Positions 1 through 19,521 of a stretch of 64,000 nucleotides of DNA are shown one piece after another (within the stretch, counting starts at the first letter, position 1; every line of letters starts with the position of its first letter). The DNA is taken from positions 224,001 to 288,000 of the forward strand of contig CAVYXA010000005.1 in the NCBI GenBank assembly GCA_963772365.1. The letters run 5' to 3'. A program made the translations under genes and the position numbers. The notes under the pieces were generated by a model. That model made no database searches. It saw only the letters and a program-made list of their open reading frames with translations, and was not told the DNA's origin. This stretch comes from an uncultured Verrucomicrobiae bacterium. Lineage in GTDB: Bacteria > Verrucomicrobiota > Verrucomicrobiia > Chthoniobacterales > UBA10450.

Positions 1-562
1 GCACAACCCACGCGATAAAACGCACCAGACCGTAACGCAGATCGACCCGATGACTCATCAACTCCAGATGCTGATTCATCACTCCGGCCGCCTGTTCCAC
101 TGACGAGCTGGACTGGAATTGGAGGACCGCGATGTTGATGAGCGAGGGAAGAAATCCATTTTCATGATCGAACGCACCGGCTACGCGCCGCCGAATTGGC
201 CCGAGATCCTGCGAAACGAGGACGGTCTGATCGTCCTCCGGCAAAAAATGCTGGCCCAGAAAGCCGTTCTCTCGCGTGGCAATGCGCCACCTCACAAAGA
301 TTTCGCCCAGCCCGATGAAAAACATGATGTGCATCAAATTTTGGATCGTGAACGGATAAAGGAAATGTTGCGACGGCTTGTCCAGCACGAGAACCGCTGC
401 GCGTCCGGAAAGAATCAGGCTGAGCAGCCCGATGAAGATCAGGCTGGCAACTGCCGCCAGAATGAGTGCGCTGGAGCGCTTTGGCTTTTCCCAGAGCGAA
501 CTCAATCCCGGACCGATCGTGGCCGAGGCCGTACTAAGATCGACAGGACGGGCATGATTCAT
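1..562 (-). CDS. MotA/TolQ/ExbB proton-channel family membrane protein (partial, runs off window start)
   Basis: Manual translation from ATG at 562: MNHARPVDL...hydrophobic segments...VDLRYGLVRFIAWVV, open to position 1. The end resembles the start of a MotA/ExbB domain. Not in the ORF track. Confidence 0.6.
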   Translation of the reverse strand, partial: MNHARPVDLSTASATIGPGLSSLWEKPKRSSALILAAVASLIFIGLLSLILSGRAAVLVLDKPSQHFLYPFTIQNLMHIMFFIGLGEIFVRWRIATRENGFLGQHFLPEDDQTVLVSQDLGPIRRRVAGAFDHENGFLPSLINIAVLQFQSSSSVEQAAGVMNQHLELMSHRVDLRYGLVRFIAWVV

Positions 563-752
563 GATCGCGCGCCGTCCGTAGAGTCATTGATCTGGCTTGG
601 GATTCTCACATCGTGGTCGCAACTCCCCGCTGGTTGCGAACATGATAGGCTAATAAAAATTCAGCTCGGCAGGCAAGTGATTCCTCAATCAGGCGCTGTG
701 TTTTACCAACGCGTTCCACCTTTACCACGAGCCGAGCGTTTTCCAAGCCGTG

Positions 753-1043
753 TCAGGCCACTCCCGCGCCCGGCTTATATCGGCTCTGCAAGATCGCGTC
801 GTGAATGTCGGGCACGTGAATTTTGCGCGCGTCGAAAGTGACGACCACGCGCTCCTCCTCACGATCGACAGTCACATCCTGAACGCCATTGAGCTTCATC
901 AGGATCGGGCGCAACCGACGCATGCACGTCTCGCAATCTTCGCCTTCGGTGGCGATCTCGATCTTCTCCAGAATGGCGTGATCGGCGCGCTCGCTGAAAA
1001 ACGGATCGGCCGGTTCGTGTTCGTTTGGTCGAGCAGGATCCAT
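753..1043 (-). CDS. Heavy-metal-associated (HMA) domain protein
   Basis: GEDCETC metal-binding motif followed by LNGVQDVTVD, typical of HMA/CopZ folds. Start placed at ATG 1043. Confidence 0.7.
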   Translation of the reverse strand: MDPARPNEHEPADPFFSERADHAILEKIEIATEGEDCETCMRRLRPILMKLNGVQDVTVDREEERVVVTFDARKIHVPDIHDAILQSRYKPGAGVA

Positions 1044-1050
1044 ATCAAAC

Positions 1051-1710
1051 TTATCTTTCGTGTGACGCTGGCTGAGCGGTTGTGTTGAGGGCAATTGGTT
1101 TCAAAACCCGCCAGACATTCTCCGCCAGCACCCGCTGGCCGTCCGCATTTGGATGGATGTGGTCCGGCAGATTCAACAAGGCGTTCCCTCCAACGTCTTT
1201 GAGCAGATACGGCACGAGAGCGGCGTGATTCTTTTCGGCAAGGTCAGGATACATTCGTCCGAACGCGCCGACGTAATCGTTGGCGGTGTAATTGGGAAGC
1301 TCCATCCCGCAAATCACAATGTGTACGTTCGGGTTACGCGCCTTCACCTTGTCGACGATCTCCTGAAGATTGTCTTCAATTTCGTCGATGGGGCGGCCGA
1401 GAAAAAAATCGTTGATACCCAATTCCAAAATAAAGATGTCGATCCTGTGTTTGAGATGGGGCGGTAAACGCAGCAACCCATCCGCGCTCGTCCCACCACT
1501 GGCGCTGGCGTTCGTCACTTCGTAATTCAAACCGGCAGCGCGCAGCTTGTCTGTAAGCAAGGCCGGATACGCCTGGCTCCGATCGAGACCAAAGCCAGCC
1601 GATAAACTGTCGCCGAAAATTAGGATACGCTTTGGGGCTCGCGCCGCGCTGAGCGCCAAAGTGGTTAAAAAGATAACGGAAGCGACTTTCGTGACACGCA
1701 CATCATTCAA
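1051..1710 (-). CDS. Arylesterase / GDSL (SGNH) lipase, TesA-like
   Basis: FGDSLSAG, ELGIND and DHIHPN motifs plus an N-terminal signal peptide. Confidence 0.9.
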   Translation of the reverse strand: MNDVRVTKVASVIFLTTLALSAARAPKRILIFGDSLSAGFGLDRSQAYPALLTDKLRAAGLNYEVTNASASGGTSADGLLRLPPHLKHRIDIFILELGINDFFLGRPIDEIEDNLQEIVDKVKARNPNVHIVICGMELPNYTANDYVGAFGRMYPDLAEKNHAALVPYLLKDVGGNALLNLPDHIHPNADGQRVLAENVWRVLKPIALNTTAQPASHER

Positions 1711-1788
1711 TCGACACGCAATTTCACGTTGGACGTTGCCCGCTGAGCGTTTAACCTTTTTTCCCTTTAACCCTTCAACGAATAGATT

Positions 1789-2790
1789 ATGGCAAACTTC
1801 GGCATCAACGGCTTCGGCCGCATCGGGCGCAACGTGTTGCGCGCCATGTCACAGAAACAAGTCGAGCGCGTCAGCGCCATCAACGATCTCACTGATACAC
1901 ATACTCTCGCGCATTTGCTTAAGTGGGATTCGGTCCACGGCAAGTTCGACGGCGAGATTGGCTACGATGACGAGAACATCGTCGTGCGCGGTCACAAGAT
2001 CCGGATTTTCAAGGAACGCGACCCGGCGAATCTTCCCTGGAAGAAACTCGATGTCGATGTTGTGCTGGAATCGACCGGCTTTTTCACCGCGCGCGACAAG
2101 GCCGAGCTGCACATCAGCAAAGGCGGCGCGAAACGGGTCTTAATCAGCGCACCGGCGAAAAATCCCGACGCCACGATTTGTATCGGAATCAATGACGACG
2201 TTTACGATCCGGCCAAGCACACCATTGTTTCAAACGCGAGCTGCACGACGAATTGTCTCGCGCCGTTGGCCAAAGTAATGCACGAAAAATTTGGCGTGGC
2301 TCACGGATTCATGAGCACGATCCACAGCTACACCAATGACCAGCGAATTCTCGATCTTCCACATGATGACTTGCGGCGTGCCCGGGCGGCTGCCATCAGC
2401 ATTATCCCATCAAGCACCGGCGCGGCCAAAGCGATCGGCGAAGTGATCCCCGCGCTGAAAGGGAAACTAAATGGCGGCGCGTTTCGTGTGCCGACACCGG
2501 ATGGTTCCGTCACGGACTTCAGTGCGCTCCTAGAGAAAGATGTCACCGTCGAAGCGATCAATGCTGCGTTCAAAGAAGCTGCAGCGGACAAGAAATACAA
2601 AGGCGTTCTCGAATTCAGCGACGAACCGCTGGTCTCGCAGGATATCGTGGGCAACCCGCACTCGTGCATCTTCGACAGCAAACTCACCATCACGCTCGGC
2701 AACCGGTTCGCCAAAATCGTCGGCTGGTACGATAACGAATGGGGCTACAGCAATCGGTGCGTCGAGATGTTGGAAATGCTGGCGAAGTAG
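1789..2790 (+). CDS. gap: Type I glyceraldehyde-3-phosphate dehydrogenase
   Basis: GINGFGRIGR, SNASCTTNCLAP, WYDNEWGY. Confidence 0.98.
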   Translation: MANFGINGFGRIGRNVLRAMSQKQVERVSAINDLTDTHTLAHLLKWDSVHGKFDGEIGYDDENIVVRGHKIRIFKERDPANLPWKKLDVDVVLESTGFFTARDKAELHISKGGAKRVLISAPAKNPDATICIGINDDVYDPAKHTIVSNASCTTNCLAPLAKVMHEKFGVAHGFMSTIHSYTNDQRILDLPHDDLRRARAAAISIIPSSTGAAKAIGEVIPALKGKLNGGAFRVPTPDGSVTDFSALLEKDVTVEAINAAFKEAAADKKYKGVLEFSDEPLVSQDIVGNPHSCIFDSKLTITLGNRFAKIVGWYDNEWGYSNRCVEMLEMLAK

Positions 2791-2792
2791 CA

Positions 2793-3259
2793 ATCTTGAT
2801 CATGCTCGTGCTCATGATCATGATCGAAGAATGAAGACATATTTCGATCACGAGAAGCTGGATGTTTATCAGGAGGCAATCGCCTTCTGCCGCTGGGTGG
2901 GTGAGTTCATCGGCGGCATCAATGCTAGGCTTGCGGCAAAAGACCAGCTCGATCGCGCTTCCACAAGCATTCCGCTTAATATCGCCGAAGGAAACGGCAA
3001 GCTTTCTAATGCTGATCGAGCACGATTTCTGGAAATAGGACGCGGCTCCGCTCTGGAGTGTGCCGCTTGTCTGGATGTCGTCGTCGCGCGCAGACTCGCT
3101 CAGCCCGATGATATTGTTGCCGCGAAAGAGCAGCTCGTCCGTATTGTAAATATGTTGATGGGGCTGTTGAAACGCTTTTCAGGCCGCGCCGAATTCTTGC
3201 GTGAAGATGAAGCACTTTATCACATCGATCATGATCAGGATCATGAGCATGATCATGAT
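2793..3259. repeat. 35-nt inverted repeat of hexamer units flanking a four-helix-bundle gene
   Basis: Left arm 2793-2827 ATCTTGATCATGCTCGTGCTCATGATCATGATCGA; right arm 3225-3259 TCGATCATGATCAGGATCATGAGCATGATCATGAT. 31/35 Watson-Crick complementary by manual alignment. Confidence 0.85.
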
Positions 3260-3271
3260 GGGACGAGATGA
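2831..3271 (+). CDS. Four helix bundle protein (23S rRNA IVS protein-like family)
   Basis: MKTYFDHEKLDVYQ...DQLDRASTSIPLNIAEG...GSALECAACLD. Start at ATG 2831. Confidence 0.9.
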   Translation: MKTYFDHEKLDVYQEAIAFCRWVGEFIGGINARLAAKDQLDRASTSIPLNIAEGNGKLSNADRARFLEIGRGSALECAACLDVVVARRLAQPDDIVAAKEQLVRIVNMLMGLLKRFSGRAEFLREDEALYHIDHDQDHEHDHDGTR

Positions 3272-4479
3272 GTAAACTCACCCTTCGCGATCTCAACGTG
3301 CGCGGGAAACGCGTGCTGGTGCGGGTTGATTTCAATGTTCCCACCGATGTTCACGGAGGGAAGTTTCGAATCACCGATGACACCAGAATTCGGGAGAGCT
3401 TGCCCACGATCAATTATCTTCGCGAGCACAAGGCCAAGACGATTTTGATGTCGCATTTTGGTCGGCCTAAAGGGAAACCGGTCGATAAATTTTCGCTGCG
3501 TTCAATAGGCGATCATTTGCATTCGCTCATTCATCATCCGGTGATTTTCAGCCACGACACGATCGGGAACGTGCCGAAGACAATCATCGAGTCGATGCAG
3601 GAAGGCGATGTCGCTTTGCTGGAAAATGTGCGGTTCCAGCCGGAGGAAGAAGCCAACGATCCGAAGTTTGCCGAAGCCCTGGCCAATTTGGGGGATCTTT
3701 ATGTGAATGATGCTTTTGGTACGGCGCATCGCGCTCATGCTTCGACGGCTGGCATTACGAAGTTCGTGAAGCAATCGGCGATGGGCCTGTTGATGGAAAA
3801 GGAGCTGAAATATCTGCGGGAAGAATTGACCAAACCAAAAAAACCATTCCTCGTGATCATGGGCGGCTCGAAAGTTTCCGATAAAATAGGTGTGCTCAAA
3901 GCCCTCATGGAAAAAGCTGACACCATCCTGATCGGGGGCGCGATGGCGAACACGTTTTTCAAAGCGCAGGGGATTCCGATCGGTGAAAGCCGGGTCGAGT
4001 CTGACAAAGTCAATCTCGCGAATGAAATTGTCGATCTTGCCAAAGAACGCGAAGTGAAATTTGTGTTGCCCGTCGATGTCGTCGAAGCGGAAGAAGTTCA
4101 ATCGGGTGCGTCCATGACGAACACGAGCCGGCTTTCGCCGGAACATGGCGTCCGCGACGGCTGGCACGCGGTCGATATCGGCACGGCGACAATCGCGTTG
4201 TATCAGGAAGAGATAGCCAAGGCGGAAACGATTTTGTGGAACGGTCCGCTGGGCGTTTTTGAAATTCCCGAATTCGCGGAAGGCACCATAGCAATCGCAG
4301 AAGCTCTCGCGCAATGCGGTGCTACCACGATCATCGGTGGTGGTGATTCAGTCACAGCAGTAAAGCAAGCAGGCTTGGCCGACAAAATGACGTTTATTTC
4401 GACCGGCGGCGGTGCGTCGCTTGAATTATTGGAAGGCAAGGAACTGCCTGGAGTCGCAGCATTATCGGATAAATCTTAG
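3268..4479 (+). CDS. pgk: Phosphoglycerate kinase
   Basis: VRVDFNVP, NDAFGTAHRAH, STGGGASLELLEG. Confidence 0.98.
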   Translation: MSKLTLRDLNVRGKRVLVRVDFNVPTDVHGGKFRITDDTRIRESLPTINYLREHKAKTILMSHFGRPKGKPVDKFSLRSIGDHLHSLIHHPVIFSHDTIGNVPKTIIESMQEGDVALLENVRFQPEEEANDPKFAEALANLGDLYVNDAFGTAHRAHASTAGITKFVKQSAMGLLMEKELKYLREELTKPKKPFLVIMGGSKVSDKIGVLKALMEKADTILIGGAMANTFFKAQGIPIGESRVESDKVNLANEIVDLAKEREVKFVLPVDVVEAEEVQSGASMTNTSRLSPEHGVRDGWHAVDIGTATIALYQEEIAKAETILWNGPLGVFEIPEFAEGTIAIAEALAQCGATTIIGGGDSVTAVKQAGLADKMTFISTGGGASLELLEGKELPGVAALSDKS

Positions 4480-4486
4480 GGCTTTC

Positions 4487-5251
4487 ATGAGAAAGAAAAT
4501 CATCGCGGCGAATTGGAAAATGAACAAAACGCAGGCCGAGGCCGAGCGTTTCATCGAGAGCTTCCTGATCGAGATCGGCGACAATCGTGATGCCGAGATC
4601 GTGATCATTCCGCCGTTCACGGCGATCGCGAAGGTGAATGAGGCGTTAGGCAAAGCGCAACACATCAAGGTAGGCGCGCAAAACATGCACTGGGAACCCC
4701 ACGGCGCATTCACCGGCGAGATCTCCGCTTCCATGCTGCGCGATTTGTTCGTGCGCTATGTCGTGCTCGGCCATAGCGAACGGCGGACCTTGTTTGGCGA
4801 AACCGATAAAATCGTAAACCGGAAAGCGCGAGCCGCACACGACTCGGCATTGCGCCCGATTGTGTGTGTCGGGGAAACACTTGAGCAGCGCGACAAGGGA
4901 AATGTGGATAAGATATTGTCGATCCAGCTCCGCGGAAGTCTGGCTGGTCTCGAGGCGAAACAATTACAGGAGACTGTGATTGCGTATGAGCCGGTCTGGG
5001 CGATCGGCACCGGTCGCAACGCTACGCCGGGTGAGGCTCAAGATGCACATGCCTTTATCCGACAGGTGATAGGCGAGATGTCCGATGGCGCGACGGCCGA
5101 CAGAATTCGGGTCCAGTACGGCGGAAGTGTGAAACCCGAAAATGCGCGCGAGCTGATGTCGCAACCGGACATCGATGGCGCGCTAGTTGGAGGGGCCAGT
5201 CTCGAACCGCGCAGCTTTGCCGAGATTGTAAAGGTAGCGAGCGAGCAATAG
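4487..5251 (+). CDS. tpiA: Triosephosphate isomerase
   Basis: AANWKMN, AYEPVWAIGTG, YGGSVKPEN, DGALVGGASL. Start at ATG 4487. Confidence 0.98.
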   Translation: MRKKIIAANWKMNKTQAEAERFIESFLIEIGDNRDAEIVIIPPFTAIAKVNEALGKAQHIKVGAQNMHWEPHGAFTGEISASMLRDLFVRYVVLGHSERRTLFGETDKIVNRKARAAHDSALRPIVCVGETLEQRDKGNVDKILSIQLRGSLAGLEAKQLQETVIAYEPVWAIGTGRNATPGEAQDAHAFIRQVIGEMSDGATADRIRVQYGGSVKPENARELMSQPDIDGALVGGASLEPRSFAEIVKVASEQ

Positions 5252-5332
5252 CGGATTCAACGGGCTGTTTTGTGGCCGACTTGCTCGTTGGTCTTGCAAT
5301 CTGTCCAATCCTATAAATCCTGTCTGGAGATC

Positions 5333-5792
5333 TCTTCCTCTTCCTCTCCCTCTTAATCTTGATCCGAACATTAATCTCTATGCCGTTCCATCACGAAAAG
5401 CTGACCGTCTATCGACGAGCGTTAGAATTCGCGACTTGGTCGCAAATTCTCATCGACTCATTAACTAAAACGACCTCGACCCGCGATCACTTGGAGCGTG
5501 CCGGCGACAGCATTGCGTTGAATATCGCCGAGGGAAACGGCAAATTCTCACAGACAGATCGGGCCCGTTTTTTCCAGATCGCACACGGCTCGGCTCTTGA
5601 GTCCGCAGGATGCCTTGATCTTCTGGTCGCGCGAGGCTGTTGTGAAGGCGATGCAATCGTGAAAGGCAAAGCGCTGCTGGAAGAAATCGTAAAGATGCTT
5701 TTTAAGATGCTTGATCAACTGGGCTGCAGGATCGCGAAAGATGCGCCCGGCTACGGGGAGGCAGCAGACGAAGAGGAAGCGGAAGAGGAAGA
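5333..5792. repeat. 22-nt inverted repeat of hexamer units flanking the second four-helix-bundle gene
   Basis: Left arm 5333-5354 TCTTCCTCTTCCTCTCCCTCTT; right arm 5771-5792 AAGAGGAAGCGGAAGAGGAAGA. 20/22 complementary. Confidence 0.8.
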
Positions 5793-5796
5793 TTGA
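5380..5796 (+). CDS. Four helix bundle protein, second paralogue
   Basis: MPFHHEKLTVY...HLERAGDSIALNIAEGNGK...GSALESAGCLD, clearly homologous to 2831..3271. Confidence 0.9.
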   Translation: MPFHHEKLTVYRRALEFATWSQILIDSLTKTTSTRDHLERAGDSIALNIAEGNGKFSQTDRARFFQIAHGSALESAGCLDLLVARGCCEGDAIVKGKALLEEIVKMLFKMLDQLGCRIAKDAPGYGEAADEEEAEEED

Positions 5797-5798
5797 TC

Positions 5799-6329
5799 AT
5801 GGCAATCACCGTTCCACGACCGAAGCTGAATTGGCGTGAGCGCCTTTATCTTCCGGCAATTTTTGCCGGCCTGGTGATCACCTTCAAACATTTCGTGAAC
5901 ATGCTGCTCGGTCGCACCAAGGTGACCATGCAATATCCGGAAGAGAAATGGGATTCGAATTTGCCCGATCACTATCGCGGTGCGCCCGCTCTGGTGAGAG
6001 ATGCCGATGGTCGGGTGCGCTGCGTCGCGTGTCAGCTTTGTGAATTCATCTGCCCACCGCGTGCGATCAAGATTGTCCCAGGCGAAATTCCATCGACCGA
6101 TCGGTTTGCCAAAGTCGAGAAACATCCCGAGGAATTCGATATCGACATGATCCGCTGCATCTTTTGCGGGATGTGCGAGGAGGTTTGTCCCGAGCAGGCG
6201 ATTTTTTTACGAAAAGATTACGCCATCACCGGTTTCACTCGCGAAGAGATGGTGTATCGAAAAGACAAGCTGATCGAGATCGGCGGAGTGATGCATGGCG
6301 TCGTTTTGAAATGGAATGAAAAGAAGTGA
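5799..6329 (+). CDS. nuoI: NADH-quinone oxidoreductase subunit I
   Basis: Two CxxCxxCxxxCP motifs and TMQYPEEK. Confidence 0.95.
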   Translation: MAITVPRPKLNWRERLYLPAIFAGLVITFKHFVNMLLGRTKVTMQYPEEKWDSNLPDHYRGAPALVRDADGRVRCVACQLCEFICPPRAIKIVPGEIPSTDRFAKVEKHPEEFDIDMIRCIFCGMCEEVCPEQAIFLRKDYAITGFTREEMVYRKDKLIEIGGVMHGVVLKWNEKK

Positions 6330-6330
6330 G

Positions 6331-6409
6331 GCCACAGCTTGACACAGATGTTCGCCGATTTTTCAGATTTCGATCTTACATCTGTGTTTGATCTGTGTTC
6401 ATCTGTGGC
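6331..6409. repeat. Empty inverted-repeat element (ACACAGATG-type 9-mer units) between nuoI and nuoJ
   Basis: GCCACAGCTTGACACAGATG ... CATCTGTGTTTGATCTGTGTTCATCTGTGGC. Confidence 0.8.
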
Positions 6410-6416
6410 TTGAAAA

Positions 6417-6920
6417 ATGTCTGCATTTCTTTTCTGGATATTCGCGATCATGATGCTGGTGTTCGGCGCGGCCGTGATCATCGTGCGCAATCCAGTGGCC
6501 AGCGCGCTGAATCTGGTGATGTCGTTCCTCGGGCTGGCAGCGCTTTTCATTTTGCTCGATGCTTACTTCATCGGCATCATCCAGGTCCTCGTTTATGCCG
6601 GAGCGGTGATGGTGCTGTTCCTTTTCATCATCATGCTTTTGAACCTGCGGGCCGAGGAAGCGCGACGAATCAACTGGCCGACCGGTATGGGGGCGATCGC
6701 GGTCGGTCAGCTTCTGATGTTCCAGATTTTTTTTGTCGTCGCGCATTTTAAAGCCGCCGCGCAACCATTTCCGCCGTTACCAACATCGACAATCGATGAC
6801 GTCCGAAACGTCGGCGCCTTGTTGTTCGCCAATTACAATCTGCCATTTCAGATCATTGGCGTGCTGGTGCTCGTCGCCACAATTGGCGTAGTTCTTCTGA
6901 GCAAGCGCGAAACGAAATAA
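6417..6920 (+). CDS. nuoJ: NADH-quinone oxidoreductase subunit J
   Basis: QVLVYAGAVMVLFLFIIMLL. Confidence 0.95.
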   Translation: MSAFLFWIFAIMMLVFGAAVIIVRNPVASALNLVMSFLGLAALFILLDAYFIGIIQVLVYAGAVMVLFLFIIMLLNLRAEEARRINWPTGMGAIAVGQLLMFQIFFVVAHFKAAAQPFPPLPTSTIDDVRNVGALLFANYNLPFQIIGVLVLVATIGVVLLSKRETK

Positions 6921-6933
6921 GATGAAACTTTTA

Positions 6934-7037
6934 GCCCGCGAATCACGCGAATGCGCGCGAATGAGAGAGATGCAAAAGCCCACTCTCAAGCTCAGCTCAT
7001 ATCTATTTCTTCGCGTCTATTCGCGTGATTCGCGGGC
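6934..7037. repeat. Empty inverted-repeat element (CGCGAAT units) between nuoJ and nuoK
   Basis: GCCCGCGAATCACGCGAAT... / ...ATTCGCGTGATTCGCGGGC, a perfect 19-bp terminal complement. Confidence 0.9.
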
Positions 7038-7049
7038 CGAAAGAATAGC

Positions 7050-7370
7050 ATGATTACACTCGGACAATACCTGATCGCCAGCGGAATTTTGTTCGCAATC
7101 GGATTTGCCGGAGTGATCCTGCGTCGAAATCTCATTGTCATTTTGATGTCGCTCGAATTGATGTTGAATGCGGCCAATCTCTCGCTGGTGGCGTTCTCCC
7201 GATTTCGTGTCGATCCAACTGGTATGCCGAATTACAACGCGCAGGTCTTCGTTTTTTTCATCATCACCGTGGCGGCGGCTGAAGTCGCCGTTGGCCTTGC
7301 CATCATCGTAGCTCTCTATCGCCTCCGCCAGACCACCGATGTAAAAGACATCAGCAGTTTGAAATTTTGA
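7050..7370 (+). CDS. nuoK: NADH-quinone oxidoreductase subunit K
   Basis: [22 protein letters not shown]. Confidence 0.95.
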
Positions 7371-7851
7371 GCCCGCGAATCACGCGAATCAAAGCGAATT
7401 ATGACGGAAATCATTCATAGGAAAGAAAGTTACGCGATTATCGGGGCCTGCTTTGAGGTCTACAATGATAAGGGCTGTGGGTTTCTCGAACCGGTTTATC
7501 AGGAATGTCTCGGCATCGAATTTGAATACCAGCGGGTACCAGCGATTCCTAAACCGTTCCTCACCCTCAATTACCGTGGACGTATTTTGACACAAACTTA
7601 CGTGCCGGATTTCGTTTGCTTCGAAAAAATTATCGTTGAACTGAAAGCGGTATCGGCCCTAATCGACGAGCACCGGGCTCAGCTCCTGAATTACCTGCAC
7701 GCCACCGGCTTCGAGCTAGGCCTATTAGTGAATTTTGGCCATTACCCGAAACTTGAACATGAACGCATTGCAAAGACTCGGTACATACCACCAAAATCCG
7801 ACTTTTCAGATGTGTCTTTGTAAATTCGCGTTAATTCGCGTGATTCGCGGG
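7371..7851. repeat. Filled inverted-repeat element (same CGCGAAT arms) enclosing the GxxExxY gene
   Basis: Left arm 7371-7400 GCCCGCGAATCACGCGAATCAAAGCGAATT; right arm 7823-7851 AATTCGCGTTAATTCGCGTGATTCGCGGG. Confidence 0.9.
7401..7823 (+). CDS. GxxExxY protein (PD-(D/E)XK-like nuclease superfamily)
   Basis: GFLEPVY signature, PDFVCFEKIIVELKA and QLLNYL...GLLVNFG. Confidence 0.92.
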   Translation: MTEIIHRKESYAIIGACFEVYNDKGCGFLEPVYQECLGIEFEYQRVPAIPKPFLTLNYRGRILTQTYVPDFVCFEKIIVELKAVSALIDEHRAQLLNYLHATGFELGLLVNFGHYPKLEHERIAKTRYIPPKSDFSDVSL

Positions 7852-7859
7852 TCAATCCA

Positions 7860-9656
7860 ATGAATTCAATCTTGCCATGGATCATTCTGCTCGCGCCGCT
7901 GGTATCCGCGGTGATGATCACCGTCTTTACACTTCGCTCGAGAAAATTGAGCAGTTTCATCTCGGTCGCGGCTGTGTTCGTGAGTTTTGTCTGCAGTTGT
8001 TTGCTGTTCGTTCGAGGAAATCTTCCCGCTGTCGAGCTGAACTGGATCGACATTAGCGGCGGCCTGAGTGTTCCGCTCGGATTCCTATTAGATCAATTGA
8101 GCAAAACAATGCTCGTTCTGGTGTCGGGCGTTGGTTTGATCATTCACATTTATTCGCTCGGCTACATGCGCGGCGATGATGGCAAATCCCGCTATTTCGC
8201 CGGTCTGTCGCTCTTCATGTTCGCGATGCTCGGGATCGTCCTTTCGAACAATTTCGTCATGCTCTTTATTTTTTGGGAGCTGGTCGGCTTTACCTCCTAT
8301 TTGTTGATTGGGCATTGGTTTGAGCGGAACGCAGCTGCGGACGCCGCGAAGAAGGCTTTCATCACGACCCGAATCGGCGACTTCGGATTCATGCTGGGCA
8401 TCCTCATGATTTGGATGCCGACGGGCTCCGTGGTTTTTTCCGAACTGGCCGAGCGGATGTCGATCCTGACAGATCATCCCGCCTATGTGACTGCTGCCGC
8501 GCTTTTGATCTTTTGCGGTGCAGTTGGGAAATCGGCCCAATTTCCGCTGCACGTGTGGTTGCCCGACGCCATGGAAGGTCCGACACCGGTTTCGGCGTTG
8601 ATCCACGCCGCGACGATGGTGGCAGCGGGAGTTTACATGCTGGCGCGCGTCGGGTTCATCATTCAAACCTCGCCAGCGGCTCTCGCGGTTATCGCATGGA
8701 TTGGCACCATCACCGCGCTCATGGCCGCGTTGATGGCGACGCAGCAGGACGATATCAAACGCATCCTGGCCTATTCTACTCTCTCGCAACTTGGTTACAT
8801 GGTGATGGCAATCGGGCTGACCTCGAGCAGCGCGGCCATGTTTCACCTTTTTACCCACGCATTTTTCAAAGCGCTGCTCTTTCTCGGCGCCGGTTCGATC
8901 ATCGTTGCGCTGCATCACGAACAAGACATTTGGGAAATGGGCGGCCTTGCGCGGAATTTGAAGTTAACGTTCGTCACCTTTTTGATCGGCGGACTTGCCC
9001 TCATGGGTTGCCCACCGTTCAGCGGATTTTTCAGTAAGGATGCAATCCTGGCGCTGGCCTACGAAAAAAACATGCCGATCTTCGTGCTCGGCCTCGGCAC
9101 GGCGTTTCTGACTGCCTTTTACGCGACGCGGATGTTGGTGGTCGTGTTCTTTGGCCATCCGCGCGGGCATGCTGCGCGGGTGAGCCGGGAGTCACCGCTT
9201 GTCATGACCCTTCCCCTGATTGCGCTCGCCGGGCTCGTGATTCTGAGCAGCATCGAATCTTTCAATCAACGATTTCTTCCGCTCCCGACCGAAAGCGGGG
9301 CGTCTCGAAATGTCCTGCTATTAGCCACCGGTGCATTGGTTTTCGGTGCAGGCCTGGCGATCTTGTTTTATCGTGGGCGCGCCACCGAGGCGGTGCACGT
9401 CAATCTTCTCCGGCGCCGTTTTTACATCGACGACTTTTATCAGTGGTTGATTCACTGGACGCAGGACCTGCTCGCGCGCGTTTCAGCTTTTTTTGATCGC
9501 TGGATTATCGACGCCCTAGCCGTGCGCGGCACCAGTGGCGGAACATGGGGAATCGGTGCCGTGCTTCGGCTCATTCAGGTCGGTAATCTCCAAGCCTATG
9601 CGTTCCTGCTCGGTCTCGGCGTCATTGCCCTGATCTATTTCGCGCTGTCGGGGTAA
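7860..9656 (+). CDS. nuoL: NADH-quinone oxidoreductase subunit L
   Basis: GKSAQFPLHVWLPDAMEGPTPVSALIHAATMV. Confidence 0.97.
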   Translation: MNSILPWIILLAPLVSAVMITVFTLRSRKLSSFISVAAVFVSFVCSCLLFVRGNLPAVELNWIDISGGLSVPLGFLLDQLSKTMLVLVSGVGLIIHIYSLGYMRGDDGKSRYFAGLSLFMFAMLGIVLSNNFVMLFIFWELVGFTSYLLIGHWFERNAAADAAKKAFITTRIGDFGFMLGILMIWMPTGSVVFSELAERMSILTDHPAYVTAAALLIFCGAVGKSAQFPLHVWLPDAMEGPTPVSALIHAATMVAAGVYMLARVGFIIQTSPAALAVIAWIGTITALMAALMATQQDDIKRILAYSTLSQLGYMVMAIGLTSSSAAMFHLFTHAFFKALLFLGAGSIIVALHHEQDIWEMGGLARNLKLTFVTFLIGGLALMGCPPFSGFFSKDAILALAYEKNMPIFVLGLGTAFLTAFYATRMLVVVFFGHPRGHAARVSRESPLVMTLPLIALAGLVILSSIESFNQRFLPLPTESGASRNVLLLATGALVFGAGLAILFYRGRATEAVHVNLLRRRFYIDDFYQWLIHWTQDLLARVSAFFDRWIIDALAVRGTSGGTWGIGAVLRLIQVGNLQAYAFLLGLGVIALIYFALSG

Positions 9657-9667
9657 ATACGTAAGCC

Positions 9668-11146
9668 ATGCTTTTGTTCATTATCTTCTGCCCGTTTGTG
9701 GCCGCCATTTTGATCATGGCTCGCGCGCCGGCGCGAAAGACAGCCCTGGCGGCTTCGGCGCTCACATTGATCGCCACATTATTCCTTTTTGTGACGTTCA
9801 ACAGATCGGCACCAGGTTTTGAGCACGTGACTTCATTCACAATCCTGTCCGATTGGCATTTGCGGTTCACCACGGGCATCGACGGCCTGAACGTGATCAT
9901 GATATTGCTCGCGGCCATTGTCACTGTAGCGGCTGTCTCCTTCACAAGTAAGATCGACAAGTTTGAGAACCAATTCTACGCCTGCCTTCTGTTCATATCA
10001 GGCGGGGTGATTGGCGCATTTGCATCGCTCGATCTCTTTTTCTTTTACGCCTTTCACGAGATCGCACTGATTCCCACTTTTTTACTGATCGGGATTTGGG
10101 GCAGCGGCAATCGCGTGGCAGCCGCGTGGAAGATCACGATCTATCTTGCGGTCGGAAGTTTCATTCTGCTCTTGGGATTGATCCTGCTTTACCAAAGTGT
10201 TCCAGCGGCAACCCGCAGCTTCGACATTCGCGAACTACAGGCCGCGATCGCCACGATGCAACTTCCGGCTAACGCGCAGCATCACGTCTATCTGCTACTT
10301 CTGACCGGTTTCGGCGTTCTCGTGTCGTTGTTTCCATTTCACAGCTGGGCGCCGGAAGCGTACGCCTCTGCGCCTCCGCCTGCCGCGATGTTGCACGCGG
10401 GCGTGCTGAAAAAATTCGGTCTCTACGGTTTGTTGCGGATCGCTCTTCCGCTGCTGCCAGAAGGCGCGCGACACTGGAACCAGGTGCTGATCATCTTCCT
10501 TCTCGGCAACATTATTTACATAGGCCTCGTTACGATCGCTCAGAAACGGCTCGATTGGATGCTCGGCTACTCCAGTGTCATGCACATGGGTTATATTTTT
10601 CTAGGAATTGCCGCCGCCAACACGGTGAGTACGACCGGCGCGGCAACTTTGATCTTCGCTCACGGACTTTCCATCGCGCTGCTTTTTGCCATCGCGGGAG
10701 AAATCCGGAAACGGACCGGCACACTCGTCCTCGATGATCTGGGTGGACTTGGCAAAGTGATGCCGCTCGCCGGGCTGGCGTTTGGTTTGGGTGCATTCGC
10801 TGCGATCGGTCTTCCCGGCTTTGCCAATTTTTCAGGCGAAATCATGATCTTCTTTGGGGCGTTTCGAAAAGGCTGGGAGATAGGCCGTTTTCATGTATTT
10901 CAAATCGCCACTGTGCTCGCGATTTGGGGTGTCGTAATTTCAGCGATTTACATGCTGCGCGCCTACCGCAAAGCATTCATGGGAACGCCGGAGGATGGGC
11001 GAAAGGCATTTGTTGATCTTAGGTCCGGGCTGCGCTGGGCGGTTGCCCTTCTGGTCGTTGCTTCACTCTGGATTGGATTTCACCCGCAATCATTCGTCAG
11101 GGTTCTCACTCCCACTTTCAACGCATATTTCGCCGCGAACCGATGA
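9668..11146 (+). CDS. nuoM: NADH-quinone oxidoreductase subunit M
   Basis: FPFHSWAPEAY, LKKFGLYG, YSSVMHMG; position in operon. Confidence 0.95.
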   Translation: MLLFIIFCPFVAAILIMARAPARKTALAASALTLIATLFLFVTFNRSAPGFEHVTSFTILSDWHLRFTTGIDGLNVIMILLAAIVTVAAVSFTSKIDKFENQFYACLLFISGGVIGAFASLDLFFFYAFHEIALIPTFLLIGIWGSGNRVAAAWKITIYLAVGSFILLLGLILLYQSVPAATRSFDIRELQAAIATMQLPANAQHHVYLLLLTGFGVLVSLFPFHSWAPEAYASAPPPAAMLHAGVLKKFGLYGLLRIALPLLPEGARHWNQVLIIFLLGNIIYIGLVTIAQKRLDWMLGYSSVMHMGYIFLGIAAANTVSTTGAATLIFAHGLSIALLFAIAGEIRKRTGTLVLDDLGGLGKVMPLAGLAFGLGAFAAIGLPGFANFSGEIMIFFGAFRKGWEIGRFHVFQIATVLAIWGVVISAIYMLRAYRKAFMGTPEDGRKAFVDLRSGLRWAVALLVVASLWIGFHPQSFVRVLTPTFNAYFAANR

Positions 11147-12570
11147 TCGCGATTACGGCGCCAATGCTGGAGATCTTCGTGCTCGTATTGGGCATGGGCA
11201 TGCTGATGTTGGAAGCGTTCACTACGAAGATCGACAAACGTTTTCTGGCCTACGCTGGAATTGCTGGTCTCGCGATTGTGTTGATCATCAGTTTCTTTTT
11301 GGCTCCGGCTCCTTCGCCGGAGCACGCGACCGGGTTTTGGAATTTTTACACGGCCGACGCGTTGTCGATCTTCTTTAAACGTTTCGCGCTACTCACCACA
11401 ATTCTGGTGTTGATCATGATGATTGATTACGCGCCGGTGGTTCACGAGTCGTTTCCAGGCCCGGGCCAGTCAGGTCTGGGCGAATTTTTTGCCGTCCCGA
11501 TCTTCACCTGCGCCGGGCTCATGTATCTTGTCTCGGCAATCGACTTCATTTTCATCTTCGTCGCGCTCGAGCTCGTGACGATTTCCTTTTACGTGCTGGT
11601 CAGTTTCACGAGAAAGAATCCGGTGACGCTGGAGGCTGGGGTGAAATATCTTGTCCTGAGCGCGCTTTCGACAGCCTTTCTTGTTTATGGAATCACCTGG
11701 CTGTTTGGCGTAACCGGCCAAACGAATTTGCATCGCATTTCGGTGGCGCTCAGCAACGGTTCCGTCGAGCGCGAACCTGCGCTGTTTGGAATGGTGCTCG
11801 TGTTGGTTGCTGTCGGTTTCAAGATTGCCGCGGTTCCATTTCAGATCTGGGTGCCGGATGTTTATCAGGGCGCGCCGACACCGGTAACTGCATTTCTCTC
11901 AGTCGGATCAAAGGCCGCCGGGTTCGTCGTTTTGCTTCGTGTATTGCAGCCGTTCCTAATGTTGCCGCAAATCCATCGCCTGATCGTTTTGATTGCGCTG
12001 CTCACGTTGATCTACGGCAATCTCTCTGCGCTGCCGCAACGCAATTTAAAGCGATTGCTGGCATATTCGAGCATTGCTCATGCTGGCTATCTGCTAATGG
12101 GGGTGGCCTCGTTCGACGGCCGGGCAGTGTCGTTCTACTTGGTGGCTTATATGACGATGACGCTATTGAGTTTTGCCGTTTTGATCATTGTCGCCCAACA
12201 AACCGGCGAAGAGATCGCCGATTTCGATGGATTAGCCGCGCGTTCGCCATTCCTCGCTTTTGCGATGTTGATAGGAATGATTTCGCTGGCGGGTGTTCCT
12301 TTCACCGGCGGATTTCTCGGAAAATTTTTCATCTTCTATGCAGCGCTCGCGCAGGGGCAGATTGCGCTTGTTGTTGTCGGTGTCATCGCCGTGGGCTGCG
12401 GATTTTATTATTATTTGAAAGTAATCCGCGCGATGTATTGGCAGCCGGCGGCGAAGATCGACAAAATTTCCGTGAGCAATCTTTCTCGGGTCGCCATCAT
12501 CGGCTTGATTATCGCAACGATTTGGCTGGGTGTATTCCCGCAGCCAATTCTGGACGCGTTAAGGCGCTGA
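11143..12570 (+). CDS. nuoN: NADH-quinone oxidoreductase subunit N
   Basis: FKIAAVPFQIWVPDVYQGAPTP, KRLLAYSSIAHAGY. Confidence 0.97.
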   Translation: MIAITAPMLEIFVLVLGMGMLMLEAFTTKIDKRFLAYAGIAGLAIVLIISFFLAPAPSPEHATGFWNFYTADALSIFFKRFALLTTILVLIMMIDYAPVVHESFPGPGQSGLGEFFAVPIFTCAGLMYLVSAIDFIFIFVALELVTISFYVLVSFTRKNPVTLEAGVKYLVLSALSTAFLVYGITWLFGVTGQTNLHRISVALSNGSVEREPALFGMVLVLVAVGFKIAAVPFQIWVPDVYQGAPTPVTAFLSVGSKAAGFVVLLRVLQPFLMLPQIHRLIVLIALLTLIYGNLSALPQRNLKRLLAYSSIAHAGYLLMGVASFDGRAVSFYLVAYMTMTLLSFAVLIIVAQQTGEEIADFDGLAARSPFLAFAMLIGMISLAGVPFTGGFLGKFFIFYAALAQGQIALVVVGVIAVGCGFYYYLKVIRAMYWQPAAKIDKISVSNLSRVAIIGLIIATIWLGVFPQPILDALRR

Positions 12571-19407: not shown

Positions 19408-19521
19408 ATTTAGCGATTTTAGCGATCTGAAGATTTAGAGATTCGCTCTTGATCTCGCCTTAAATCGCTAAACCATTAAATCGCCTGATCTTTAAATCAC
19501 CAAATCGCTAAACTGCTAAAT
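19408..19521. repeat. Empty inverted-repeat element of 8-mer units (ATTTAGCG / AAATCGCT) between guaB3 and fabF
   Basis: ATTTAGCGATTTTAGCGATCTGAAGATTTAGAGAT pairs imperfectly with ATCTTTAAATCACCAAATCGCTAAACTGCTAAAT, with extra units in between. Confidence 0.8.

Follow-up and report, generated by a model that had tools for sequence, protein, structure and literature searches.

Organization of the nuoJKL locus

The window analyzed here is a stretch of 64,000 nucleotides from the genome of an uncultured Verrucomicrobiae bacterium (contig CAVYXA010000005.1, positions 224,001 to 288,000). Two elements framed by the same inverted arms flank its nuoK gene. The element in the nuoJ/nuoK (J/K) gap is gene-less, and the element in the nuoK/nuoL (K/L) gap is a cassette that encodes a nuclease-like protein of the GxxExxY family. 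The arms share a 19-nt word, GCCCGCGAATCACGCGAAT, which occurs on the + strand at 6934-6952 and 7371-7389. Its reverse complement is found at 7019-7037 (exact) and at 7834-7852 (one mismatch, at the last base). The four copies form two inverted pairs, one in each gap. Within the window, these four matches at three mismatches or fewer compare with 0.06 expected, and four were reached in none of 100 shuffles. Genome-wide (3.35 Mb, six contigs), they are the sole matches at one mismatch or fewer. An earlier note on this DNA had pointed to identical arms around a nuoJ/K spacer of about 50 nt and around the GxxExxY gene in nuoK/L. The word matches confirm this, and the spacer agrees with a loop of about 46 nt between the full J/K arms. 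The genome-wide count of arm copies that the note had proposed gives four only, all flanking nuoK.

Each arm consists of three 7-bp CGCGAAT boxes with spacings of 9 and 10 nt, the innermost box being imperfect. With the third box included, the left arm of the J/K element (6934-6962, + strand) has boxes at 6937-6943, 6946-6952, and 6956-6962 and holds an exact match to the 19-nt word. The right arm (7009-7037, + strand) has reverse-complement boxes at 7009-7015 (CTTCGCG), 7019-7025, and 7028-7034. The loop between them (6963-7008, + strand) gives weak local alignments to both ends of the K/L gene. In the K/L cassette, the left arm (7371-7399, + strand; boxes 7374-7380, 7383-7389, and 7393-7399, the last reading AGCGAAT) begins one base past the nuoK stop codon. 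It is followed by the GxxExxY gene (7401-7823, + strand; 140 aa) and by the right arm (7824-7852, + strand; reverse-complement boxes 7824-7830, 7834-7840, and 7843-7849), which stops 7 nt ahead of the nuoL start codon. The host genes are nuoJ (6417-6920), nuoK (7050-7370, + strand; PF00420, E 2.5e-30), which is enclosed between the two elements, and nuoL (7860-9656).

The 10 or so nucleotides to the left of both left arms are also similar (TGAAAyTTTkA; 6921-6933 versus 7358-7370). The K/L stretch belongs to the 3' end of nuoK, and the J/K left flank of one relative (genome G011) has ATGAAG. The likeness may be a trace of a copy or conversion event and is too short to weigh.

The GxxExxY protein

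GxxExxY/PDDEXK_3 proteins form a large family, often with many copies per genome. A superfamily survey lists PDDEXK_3 as "Unknown" (PMC3424549). The product of 7401-7823 matches the PF13366 PDDEXK_3 profile (E 1.4e-37, 129 bits against a cut-off of 22), which is its only Pfam match, and the TIGR04256 GxxExxY profile (E 5.4e-37, 126.7 bits against a cut-off of 35). Its G27/E30/Y33 motif and its D70/E80/K82 residues are intact, and all six residues are invariant in one alignment. In 80 proteins of the family, D70 and K82 do not vary, and E80 is kept in at least 90%.

The predicted model of the K/L protein has a PD-(D/E)XK fold (predicted local distance difference test, pLDDT, 90.8). The best folds returned by Foldseek are Cas4 SSO0001 (4ic1, E 2e-4, template modeling score 0.51), lambda exonuclease, and 3ijm. 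These searches with the model found the generic PD-(D/E)XK fold only and no functional neighbor. A PDB sequence search with the family profile gave nothing significant, the best match being T7 endonuclease I (E 0.12). Residues 10, 14, and 22 sit in the N-terminal helix of the predicted model (residues 7-24), and from helical periodicity we infer that they share one face of this helix. In the K/L gene, the codon of S10 lies at 7428-7430 and that of N22 at 7464-7466.

Many members of the family end in [DE]-x-[VI]-[SY]-L immediately before the right arm. Some arms are partly translated: in CGCCAAA-type K/L cassettes of relatives, the ATG lies within the inner left box and the protein begins MTPKK (L002, L011, L013, and L018). 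In other paralogs of this genome (L031, L032, and L035), the boxes encode N- or C-terminal residues.

Conservation of the boxes across the family

A scan of one genome per species yielded 80 homologous loci with 53-77% identity (set 1). Their sources include Verrucomicrobiota, Planctomycetota, Acidobacteriota, Armatimonadota, Bacteroidota, several proteobacterial classes, others, and one archaeal metagenome-assembled genome (MAG); cultured carriers are, for example, Roseimaritima sediminicola JC651, Nitrosomonas halophila Nm1, and Methylomicrobium sp. wino1. The full sample comprises 170 homologous loci from more than 10 phyla, and the majority of the genes in it are framed by arms of the three-box type. 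Inverted arms of three units like CACGAAA, CGCGAAT, or CACGGAA are present at nearly all set 1 loci, and CACGAAA is 27-fold enriched at arm positions relative to control flanks. In the position matrix, the box settled on C-[A/G]-C-[G>a,t,c]-[A>g]-A-[A>t] (consensus C-R-C-G-R-A-W); the first spacing is 9 and the second is 9 or 10. With a triple-box model scored at 15 bits or more, both arms were detected at 54 of 88 scorable set 1 loci, one arm at 22, and neither at 11, against 23 of 654 control segments.

Arms of one locus resemble each other selectively. Bases 2, 5, and 7 and the outer flank are coupled between arms (agreement of 0.87-0.93 within a locus versus 0.5-0.75 between loci). Little coupling is seen at base 4 (0.65 within versus 0.55 between loci) or in the inner linker. 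Core mismatches compatible with G-U pairing make up 31 of 130 on the transcribed (+) strand versus 35 of 130 on the - strand, and the arm comparison in set 1 gave no sign of compensatory upkeep of an RNA helix. The coupled motif and the uncompensated free positions therefore point to selection on the motif at both sides. Judged by these comparisons, the boxes look more like protein sites than like an RNA stem.

At the RNA level, the J/K hairpin has a predicted energy of -62.4 kcal/mol (z -7.97), and the K/L arms close a predicted 505-nt fold (z -3.6). Rfam gave no match at E of 1 or less in positions 1-12000 of the window. It had also been suggested that the outermost arms (6934 with 7851) pair and loop out nuoK. 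Such a pairing is energetically possible, being only 2.9 kcal/mol worse than local pairing in a predicted 945-nt fold (-307.8 versus -310.7 kcal/mol). It lacks comparative support, as the J/K element is absent in most relatives, and was rejected as a designed switch.

Covariation between protein residues and box bases

Seventy-one set 1 loci provided both a protein and units for covariation analysis. The residue 22 column has the highest mutual information with base 7 (0.59; 95% limit of the shuffled maximum, 0.37), and the residue 10 column has the highest with base 5 (0.44; 95% limit, 0.29). Both hypotheses were fixed before the examination of set 2, which consists of 80 independent metagenome loci seeded from another family member, 71 of them usable. 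There, Asn22 occurs with T7 (25/25) and Lys, Arg, or Thr22 with A7 (46/46), with no exception in 71. Thr10 occurs with G5 in six of six cases, and Ser, Cys, or Ala10 with A5 in 60 and with G5 in two. The residue 22 column holds the whole entropy of base 7 (0.936 bits; 0.466 for the next column), and base 5 is best tracked by the I14 and S10 columns.

In the pooled sample (n = 142), the pairs of residue 22 and base 7 are N-T in 41 loci, N-A in one, K/R-A in 91, and K/R-T in three, and Thr10 is found with G5 in 17 of 17. The A/T switch at base 7 recurs in eight box backgrounds (CACGAA-, CGCGAA-, CACGGA-, CGCAGA-, CACAGA-, CGCGGA-, CGCTAA-, and TACGAA-). Five sister contrasts with support of at least 80 are concordant, and the approximately unbiased (AU) test rejects monophyly of the 17 Asn22 proteins (p 0.039). 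The K/L protein, with Ser10, Asn22, and CGCGAAT boxes, agrees with the rule.

A relic cassette between nuoJ and nuoK

nuoK was found in 40 of 41 related genomes, and 30 loci were fetched. Among the 29 loci with both flanks, the K/L gap holds an orthologous GxxExxY gene (66-77% identity) in seven, namely this genome (G000), G001, G011, G009 (frameshifted), G022, G017, and G021. At 20 others, about 20 nt or less separates the nuoK match from the nuoL match, and the remaining two carry other palindromes. These are GC-rich, lack GxxExxY boxes, and measure 259 nt (L016, in G005) and 159 nt (L024, in G004). At L013 (G017), an extra left arm and a short loop after the GxxExxY stop codon form a small nested hairpin. 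GxxExxY cassettes also occur in the nuoL/nuoM (L/M) gap of other Chthoniobacterales MAGs (L051 and L071). L043 and L051 lie on one contig, where both the K/L and L/M gaps are filled.

The J/K gap is occupied in only five genomes of the related set, and K/L is filled in all five. The J/K insert is 328 nt long in G011, 174 nt in G009, 158 nt in G001 (with different arms), 139 nt in G022, and 132 nt here. A sixth insert, of 120 nt, comes from a public collection (L092). The J/K junction is compact in all relatives but the four with an insert (L002, L005, L010, and L011), that of L026 measuring about 31 nt. Eight short J/K or K/L spacers in relatives measure 3-12 nt. Judged against unoccupied sites, the insert boundaries are the outer arm ends: the unoccupied site of G010 reads tttTAGTGATCCGatg, and the site in this genome reads tttTGA[arm..arm]CAATCCAatg.

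A GxxExxY gene can still be read in the G011 insert, though with its center deleted and a frameshift, and the G009 insert retains the first 11 and last 16 codons. When aligned, five of the inserts (328, 174, 139, 132, and 120 nt) have common arms, position, and right flank (..AAAA.TAG.ATG) and form a deletion series. These shared features and the deletion series therefore identify the J/K element as an old, gutted cassette. On this comparative evidence, it is what internal deletions have left of a second GxxExxY cassette, and should not be taken for an unoccupied site or for a fresh copy. The loop at 6963-7008 would be what is left of the 5' leader and start and of the 3' end of the lost gene. 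The label "empty" does not suit the J/K copy, which is a gene-less relic; truly unoccupied sites in relatives measure 4-12 nt. The related proposal that the arms delimit a unit that loses cargo is supported by the orthologous series, which runs from 328 down to 120 nt.

In a nuoJKL tree, all seven K/L-filled genomes fall within one ten-genome clade (Shimodaira-Hasegawa-like approximate likelihood ratio support of 99), which has three cassette-free members. On this tree, the K/L and the J/K states each need a minimum of three changes. G008, one of the cassette-free rows, is an unpublished genome on which no claim rests.

Apparent rewriting of the relic boxes

The J/K relics of G011, G009, G022, and L092 have A-type boxes (CACGAAA), and the G011 relic still encodes Lys22. 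Among the relics compared, this genome alone has T at base 7, in five of six J/K boxes. The outer 19 nt of its relic arms are identical to the K/L arms, including a linker base that differs between the K/L arms of G000 and G011. The relic leader, GAGAGAGATGC, resembles the G022 relic and not the start region of the K/L gene. The simplest account of these sequences is that old Lys22-type relic arms were overwritten from the Asn22-type arms 330 bp away. Rewriting would have occurred by gene conversion from the neighboring K/L arms, and the rewritten relic boxes would be sites for the neighbor's Asn22 protein.

Cassettes and gene-less hairpins elsewhere in the genome

This genome contains six PF13366 loci, of which one is frameshifted, and twelve loci of PF05635, the four-helix-bundle "23S rRNA intervening sequence (IVS) protein" family. 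Inverted arms of 22-57 nt, particular to each locus, frame all six of the former and most of the latter. The arms are built from at least three tandem units of 7-9 nt, the unit varies by locus, and the elements are mostly 430-500 bp long. Five of the six PF13366 cassettes and four of the twelve PF05635 cassettes lie in sense between same-strand open reading frames (ORFs) of at least 100 aa, with both gaps at most 25 nt; for the five PF13366 cassettes the gaps do not exceed 23 nt. Several further cassettes have a close same-strand neighbor on one side. Insertion sites vary from locus to locus. Two of the PF05635 (Avd-like) genes lie upstream in the window (2793-3259 and 5329-5798), in sense and in the same gene string as the nuo elements. 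Their arms are inverted tandem units, CTCATGATC-like and CTCTTCC-like, that are unrelated to the GxxExxY units.

Gene-less hairpins accompany several of the resident box types. Outside their own cassettes, the six types have 5, 4, 6, 0, 12, and 6 double boxes. Twelve non-resident 7-mers have seven in total, four of which (CACAGAT) correspond to the outer box of a resident arm type. For paralog p4 (CACGGAT), some nine arm-loop-arm hairpins were recognized by eye, in which the arms are conserved but the loops look unrelated. One of them (C5, about 172960-173035) and the p4 cassette (174724-175190) flank a host ORF (173029-174720), as the two elements flank nuoK, and about eight further CACGGAT-type hairpins lie dispersed through the genome. 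Also by eye, two hairpins were assigned to the p1 type and three to the p5 type. A gene-less p5 hairpin (C1:154897-155030) and a frameshifted cassette 1.18 Mb away (C1:1337120-1337591) share their CAGGAAAG units and outer ends. A REP-like (repetitive extragenic palindromic) high-copy family for the K/L arm was rejected, as there are four copies, all local.

Among the 170 loci, which come from other organisms, 87 have a plain arm-gene-arm structure, 58 have further box arrays within 300 nt, and 10 have a complete hairpin on each side. The last two counts indicate that adjacent filled and gene-less copies are recurrent in the family. The earlier note had proposed that the unit spreads locally. 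This is supported by the second gene-less/filled pair in the genome and by the 58 loci with extra arrays; J/K itself is not a fresh copy, since the element is old and only its boxes look recently rewritten. The suggestion that the protein may recognize its own arms gains support from the covariation replicated out of sample and from the resident-type gene-less hairpins.

Other repeats were noted as well. Positions 19409-19520 of the window hold a gene-less array of inverted ATCGCTAAA units. As an A-type box, CGCTAAA fits the GxxExxY box model. Because no cassette of the genome matches the array, it may be an orphan relic. Genome-wide, there are also several REP-like palindrome families, unrelated and with many copies, such as TGTAGCGGCGGTCTATGACCGTCGC, TGTCATTCTGAGCGAAGCGAAGAATCTC, and CTGTAGGGGAAGCTGACAGCTTCCCC.

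Comparison with known systems

The system described here shares several features with REPIN-RAYT systems. RAYTs (REP-associated tyrosine transposases) are IS200/IS605-type HUH tyrosine transposases whose repeats each contain one REP palindrome and reach tens to hundreds of copies. A gene between two complete hairpins is the usual arrangement around RAYT genes. As in those systems, a single small nuclease-type gene is flanked by cognate inverted short repeats, and the genome has gene-less hairpin doublets at other places (for the K/L type the J/K relic, and the hairpins of p1, p4, and p5). Protein types co-vary with the repeat variant in two sets (residue 22 with base 7 and residue 10 with base 5), inheritance is mostly vertical, and the gene lies between two complete hairpins at 10 of 170 GxxExxY loci. 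However, profile and fold searches identify the GxxExxY protein as a 140-aa PD-(D/E)XK protein (PF13366) and not as an HUH transposase. The GxxExxY repeat comprises three 7-bp boxes, each type has 0 to about 9 copies, and the gene lies in sense inside operons. The likeness to REP/RAYT drawn before thus stands as an analogy; membership does not, given the PD-(D/E)XK fold.

The IVS of 23S rRNA genes provides another parallel. The 428-nt IVS of Coxiella burnetii contains a small ORF inside terminal inverted repeats, is excised by RNase III, and has undergone reductive evolution of its ORF (PMC4990558). Similarly, the GxxExxY elements are about 430-500 nt long, have inverted repeats around a small ORF, and lie in sense in a highly expressed transcript, and their arm design recurs at the PF05635 "IVS protein" genes of this genome. 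Unlike the IVS, the elements lie in nuoJ/K and nuoK/L and not in rRNA, and their cargo is PF13366 and not S23p/PF05635. The GxxExxY arm motif is conserved and covaries with the protein, and its free positions are uncompensated.

Miniature inverted-repeat transposable elements (MITEs) and transposons with terminal inverted repeats likewise have terminal inverted site arrays, internally deleted derivatives that keep their ends, and presence or absence at orthologous sites. In contrast to these, there is no DDE or other known transposase here, no consistent target-site duplication was seen at the junctions compared, and there are no sets of near-identical copies: the exact arm is found only at the two adjacent elements, and p4 loops look unrelated by eye. 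Free-standing homing endonuclease genes resemble the cassette in being small selfish nuclease genes between conserved genes, with a patchy distribution and possible gene conversion nearby. The difference is that the apparent recognized sequence is on the element's own arms and not on the empty allele, and insertion sites vary. In the titles and abstract openings of the literature on the GxxExxY, PDDEXK_3, and PF05635 families, no description of arms was found.

Proposed mechanism and alternative explanations

The explanation we favor, and consider moderately probable, is that the four arm copies form the terminal box arrays of two neighboring cassettes of one family, whose boxes are read by their own protein, in a REPIN/RAYT-like selfish system of nuclease plus sites. 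The boxes would most likely be recognition sites of the cassette's own protein. Read-out would occur through one face of the N-terminal helix, with residue 22 reading base 7 and residues 10 and 14 reading base 5. The protein would bind the boxes, probably as an oligomer, as the three boxes are spaced about one turn apart. Nuclease activity at or near the boxes would underlie gain, loss, or conversion. In its workings, the cassette would be REPIN/RAYT-like or MITE-like: a nuclease or transposase paired with cognate inverted sites and accompanied by non-autonomous hairpins derived from it. It would be inherited mostly vertically, with occasional gain, clean loss, or exchange, and would decay by internal deletion while the arms persist. 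The protein might also read the boxes in RNA, and the protein-site and RNA-stem readings are compatible. A wider generalization is conceivable, though we hold it more tentatively and would not be surprised to see it fail. GxxExxY proteins may be miniature sequence-specific nucleases, widespread in more than 10 phyla, with a simple, evolvable helix read-out of Asn22 for T7, Lys/Arg22 for A7, and Thr10 for G5, that by acting on arrays of their own 7-bp boxes maintain, rewrite, and occasionally move hairpins in trans.

Several observations weigh against a cassette with self-recognized sites. The case is comparative throughout, and binding, a DNA or RNA substrate, cleavage, and mobility are what we infer from it. 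Gene and arms are linked and co-inherited, so the covariation can stem partly from shared descent. The protein tree has low resolution, with good support for 8 of its 68 inner branches, and an independent-pairs test on well-supported branches has two and one pairs and no power. The AU p of 0.039 is modest, and the Asn22 group was defined with the tree already in view. The rule fails in a distant paralog of this genome, p2, which has Arg22 with T boxes; another, p4, has Gln22 with T boxes, and on these sequences the residue 22/base 7 rule is a property of this subfamily. By eye, filled and unoccupied J/K and K/L junctions in 12 genomes gave no consistent target-site duplication. The exact K/L-type arm has no dispersed copies, only the adjoining relic, and copy numbers of 0 to about 9 per type are far under those of REP families. 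The p4-type loops look unrelated by eye, and therefore those hairpins are not recent copies of each other. PF05635 genes share the architecture with unrelated units, so part of the design may be nuclease-independent. Finally, the very stable predicted RNA stems leave room for an RNA-level role.

This last point is the core of an IVS-like explanation, which we consider unlikely but the strongest of the competitors. Here the arms would be an RNA stem in the nuo transcript that is cut by RNase III or another host enzyme, which would excise the cassette or rejoin the nuoK stop and the nuoL start, and the protein would not read the arms, or would read them only as RNA. The strong stems predicted for both elements fit this explanation, as do cassettes in sense that abut the stop and start codons of operon genes. 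It is further in line with the size and ORF-in-loop layout, which are like those of the Coxiella IVS, and with the same layout of PF05635 "IVS protein" genes in the genome. However, base 4 and the inner linker are uncompensated, and G-U pairs show no bias toward the transcribed strand. The box sequence itself, beyond its pairing, is kept across more than 10 phyla, the covariation points to the protein, and no Rfam match was obtained. At 10 of 170 loci, moreover, the gene lies between two complete hairpins and not within one.

If a protein does read the boxes, they may instead be autoregulatory operators of a DNA-binding protein whose nuclease activity on them was lost or never used. The gene-less hairpins would then be inert decay products, retained by chance or for host use, such as transcript stabilization as in REP elements. 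Three phased boxes per side are typical of cooperative repressor binding, and covariation shows recognition only, not cutting. Nevertheless, we judge this improbable. The D/E/K triad is conserved in 80 proteins, and presence or absence with clean boundaries at orthologous sites points to gain or loss of whole units. Neither gene-less hairpins with intact boxes but unrelated loops nor J/K relic boxes re-specified after gene loss would be expected of inert debris. Least probable is a recent local duplication, in which the J/K hairpin would be a fresh, functionless partial copy of K/L made by slippage or recombination, with arm identity reflecting its youth. The outer arms are indeed identical at 19/19 and 18/19 positions, and the TGAAAyTTTkA likeness lies to the left of both left arms. 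However, the J/K element is orthologous in right flank and position to the relics of G009, G011, G022, and L092, and its interior is like those relics and not like the start of the K/L gene; only its boxes are K/L-like.

Implications

If the wider generalization is true, GxxExxY cassettes would form a selfish nuclease-plus-repeat system of a new class, set apart from RAYT, DDE, and homing systems, and the relic beside nuoK would have been caught after its re-specification to a new master protein. The nuo locus contributes the relic series, the arm re-specification, and the out-of-sample test of the read-out rule. The relatives provide a natural decay series from full gene to truncated gene to bare hairpin, together with the apparent re-specification of an orphan hairpin. 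The hypothesis is that the protein binds the framing 7-bp boxes and that two residues set two bases, so N22K or S10T should shift specificity predictably. If the nuclease acts on the boxes, the family would offer a compact set of recognition modules and would represent an undescribed form of upkeep of small repeats inside essential operons.

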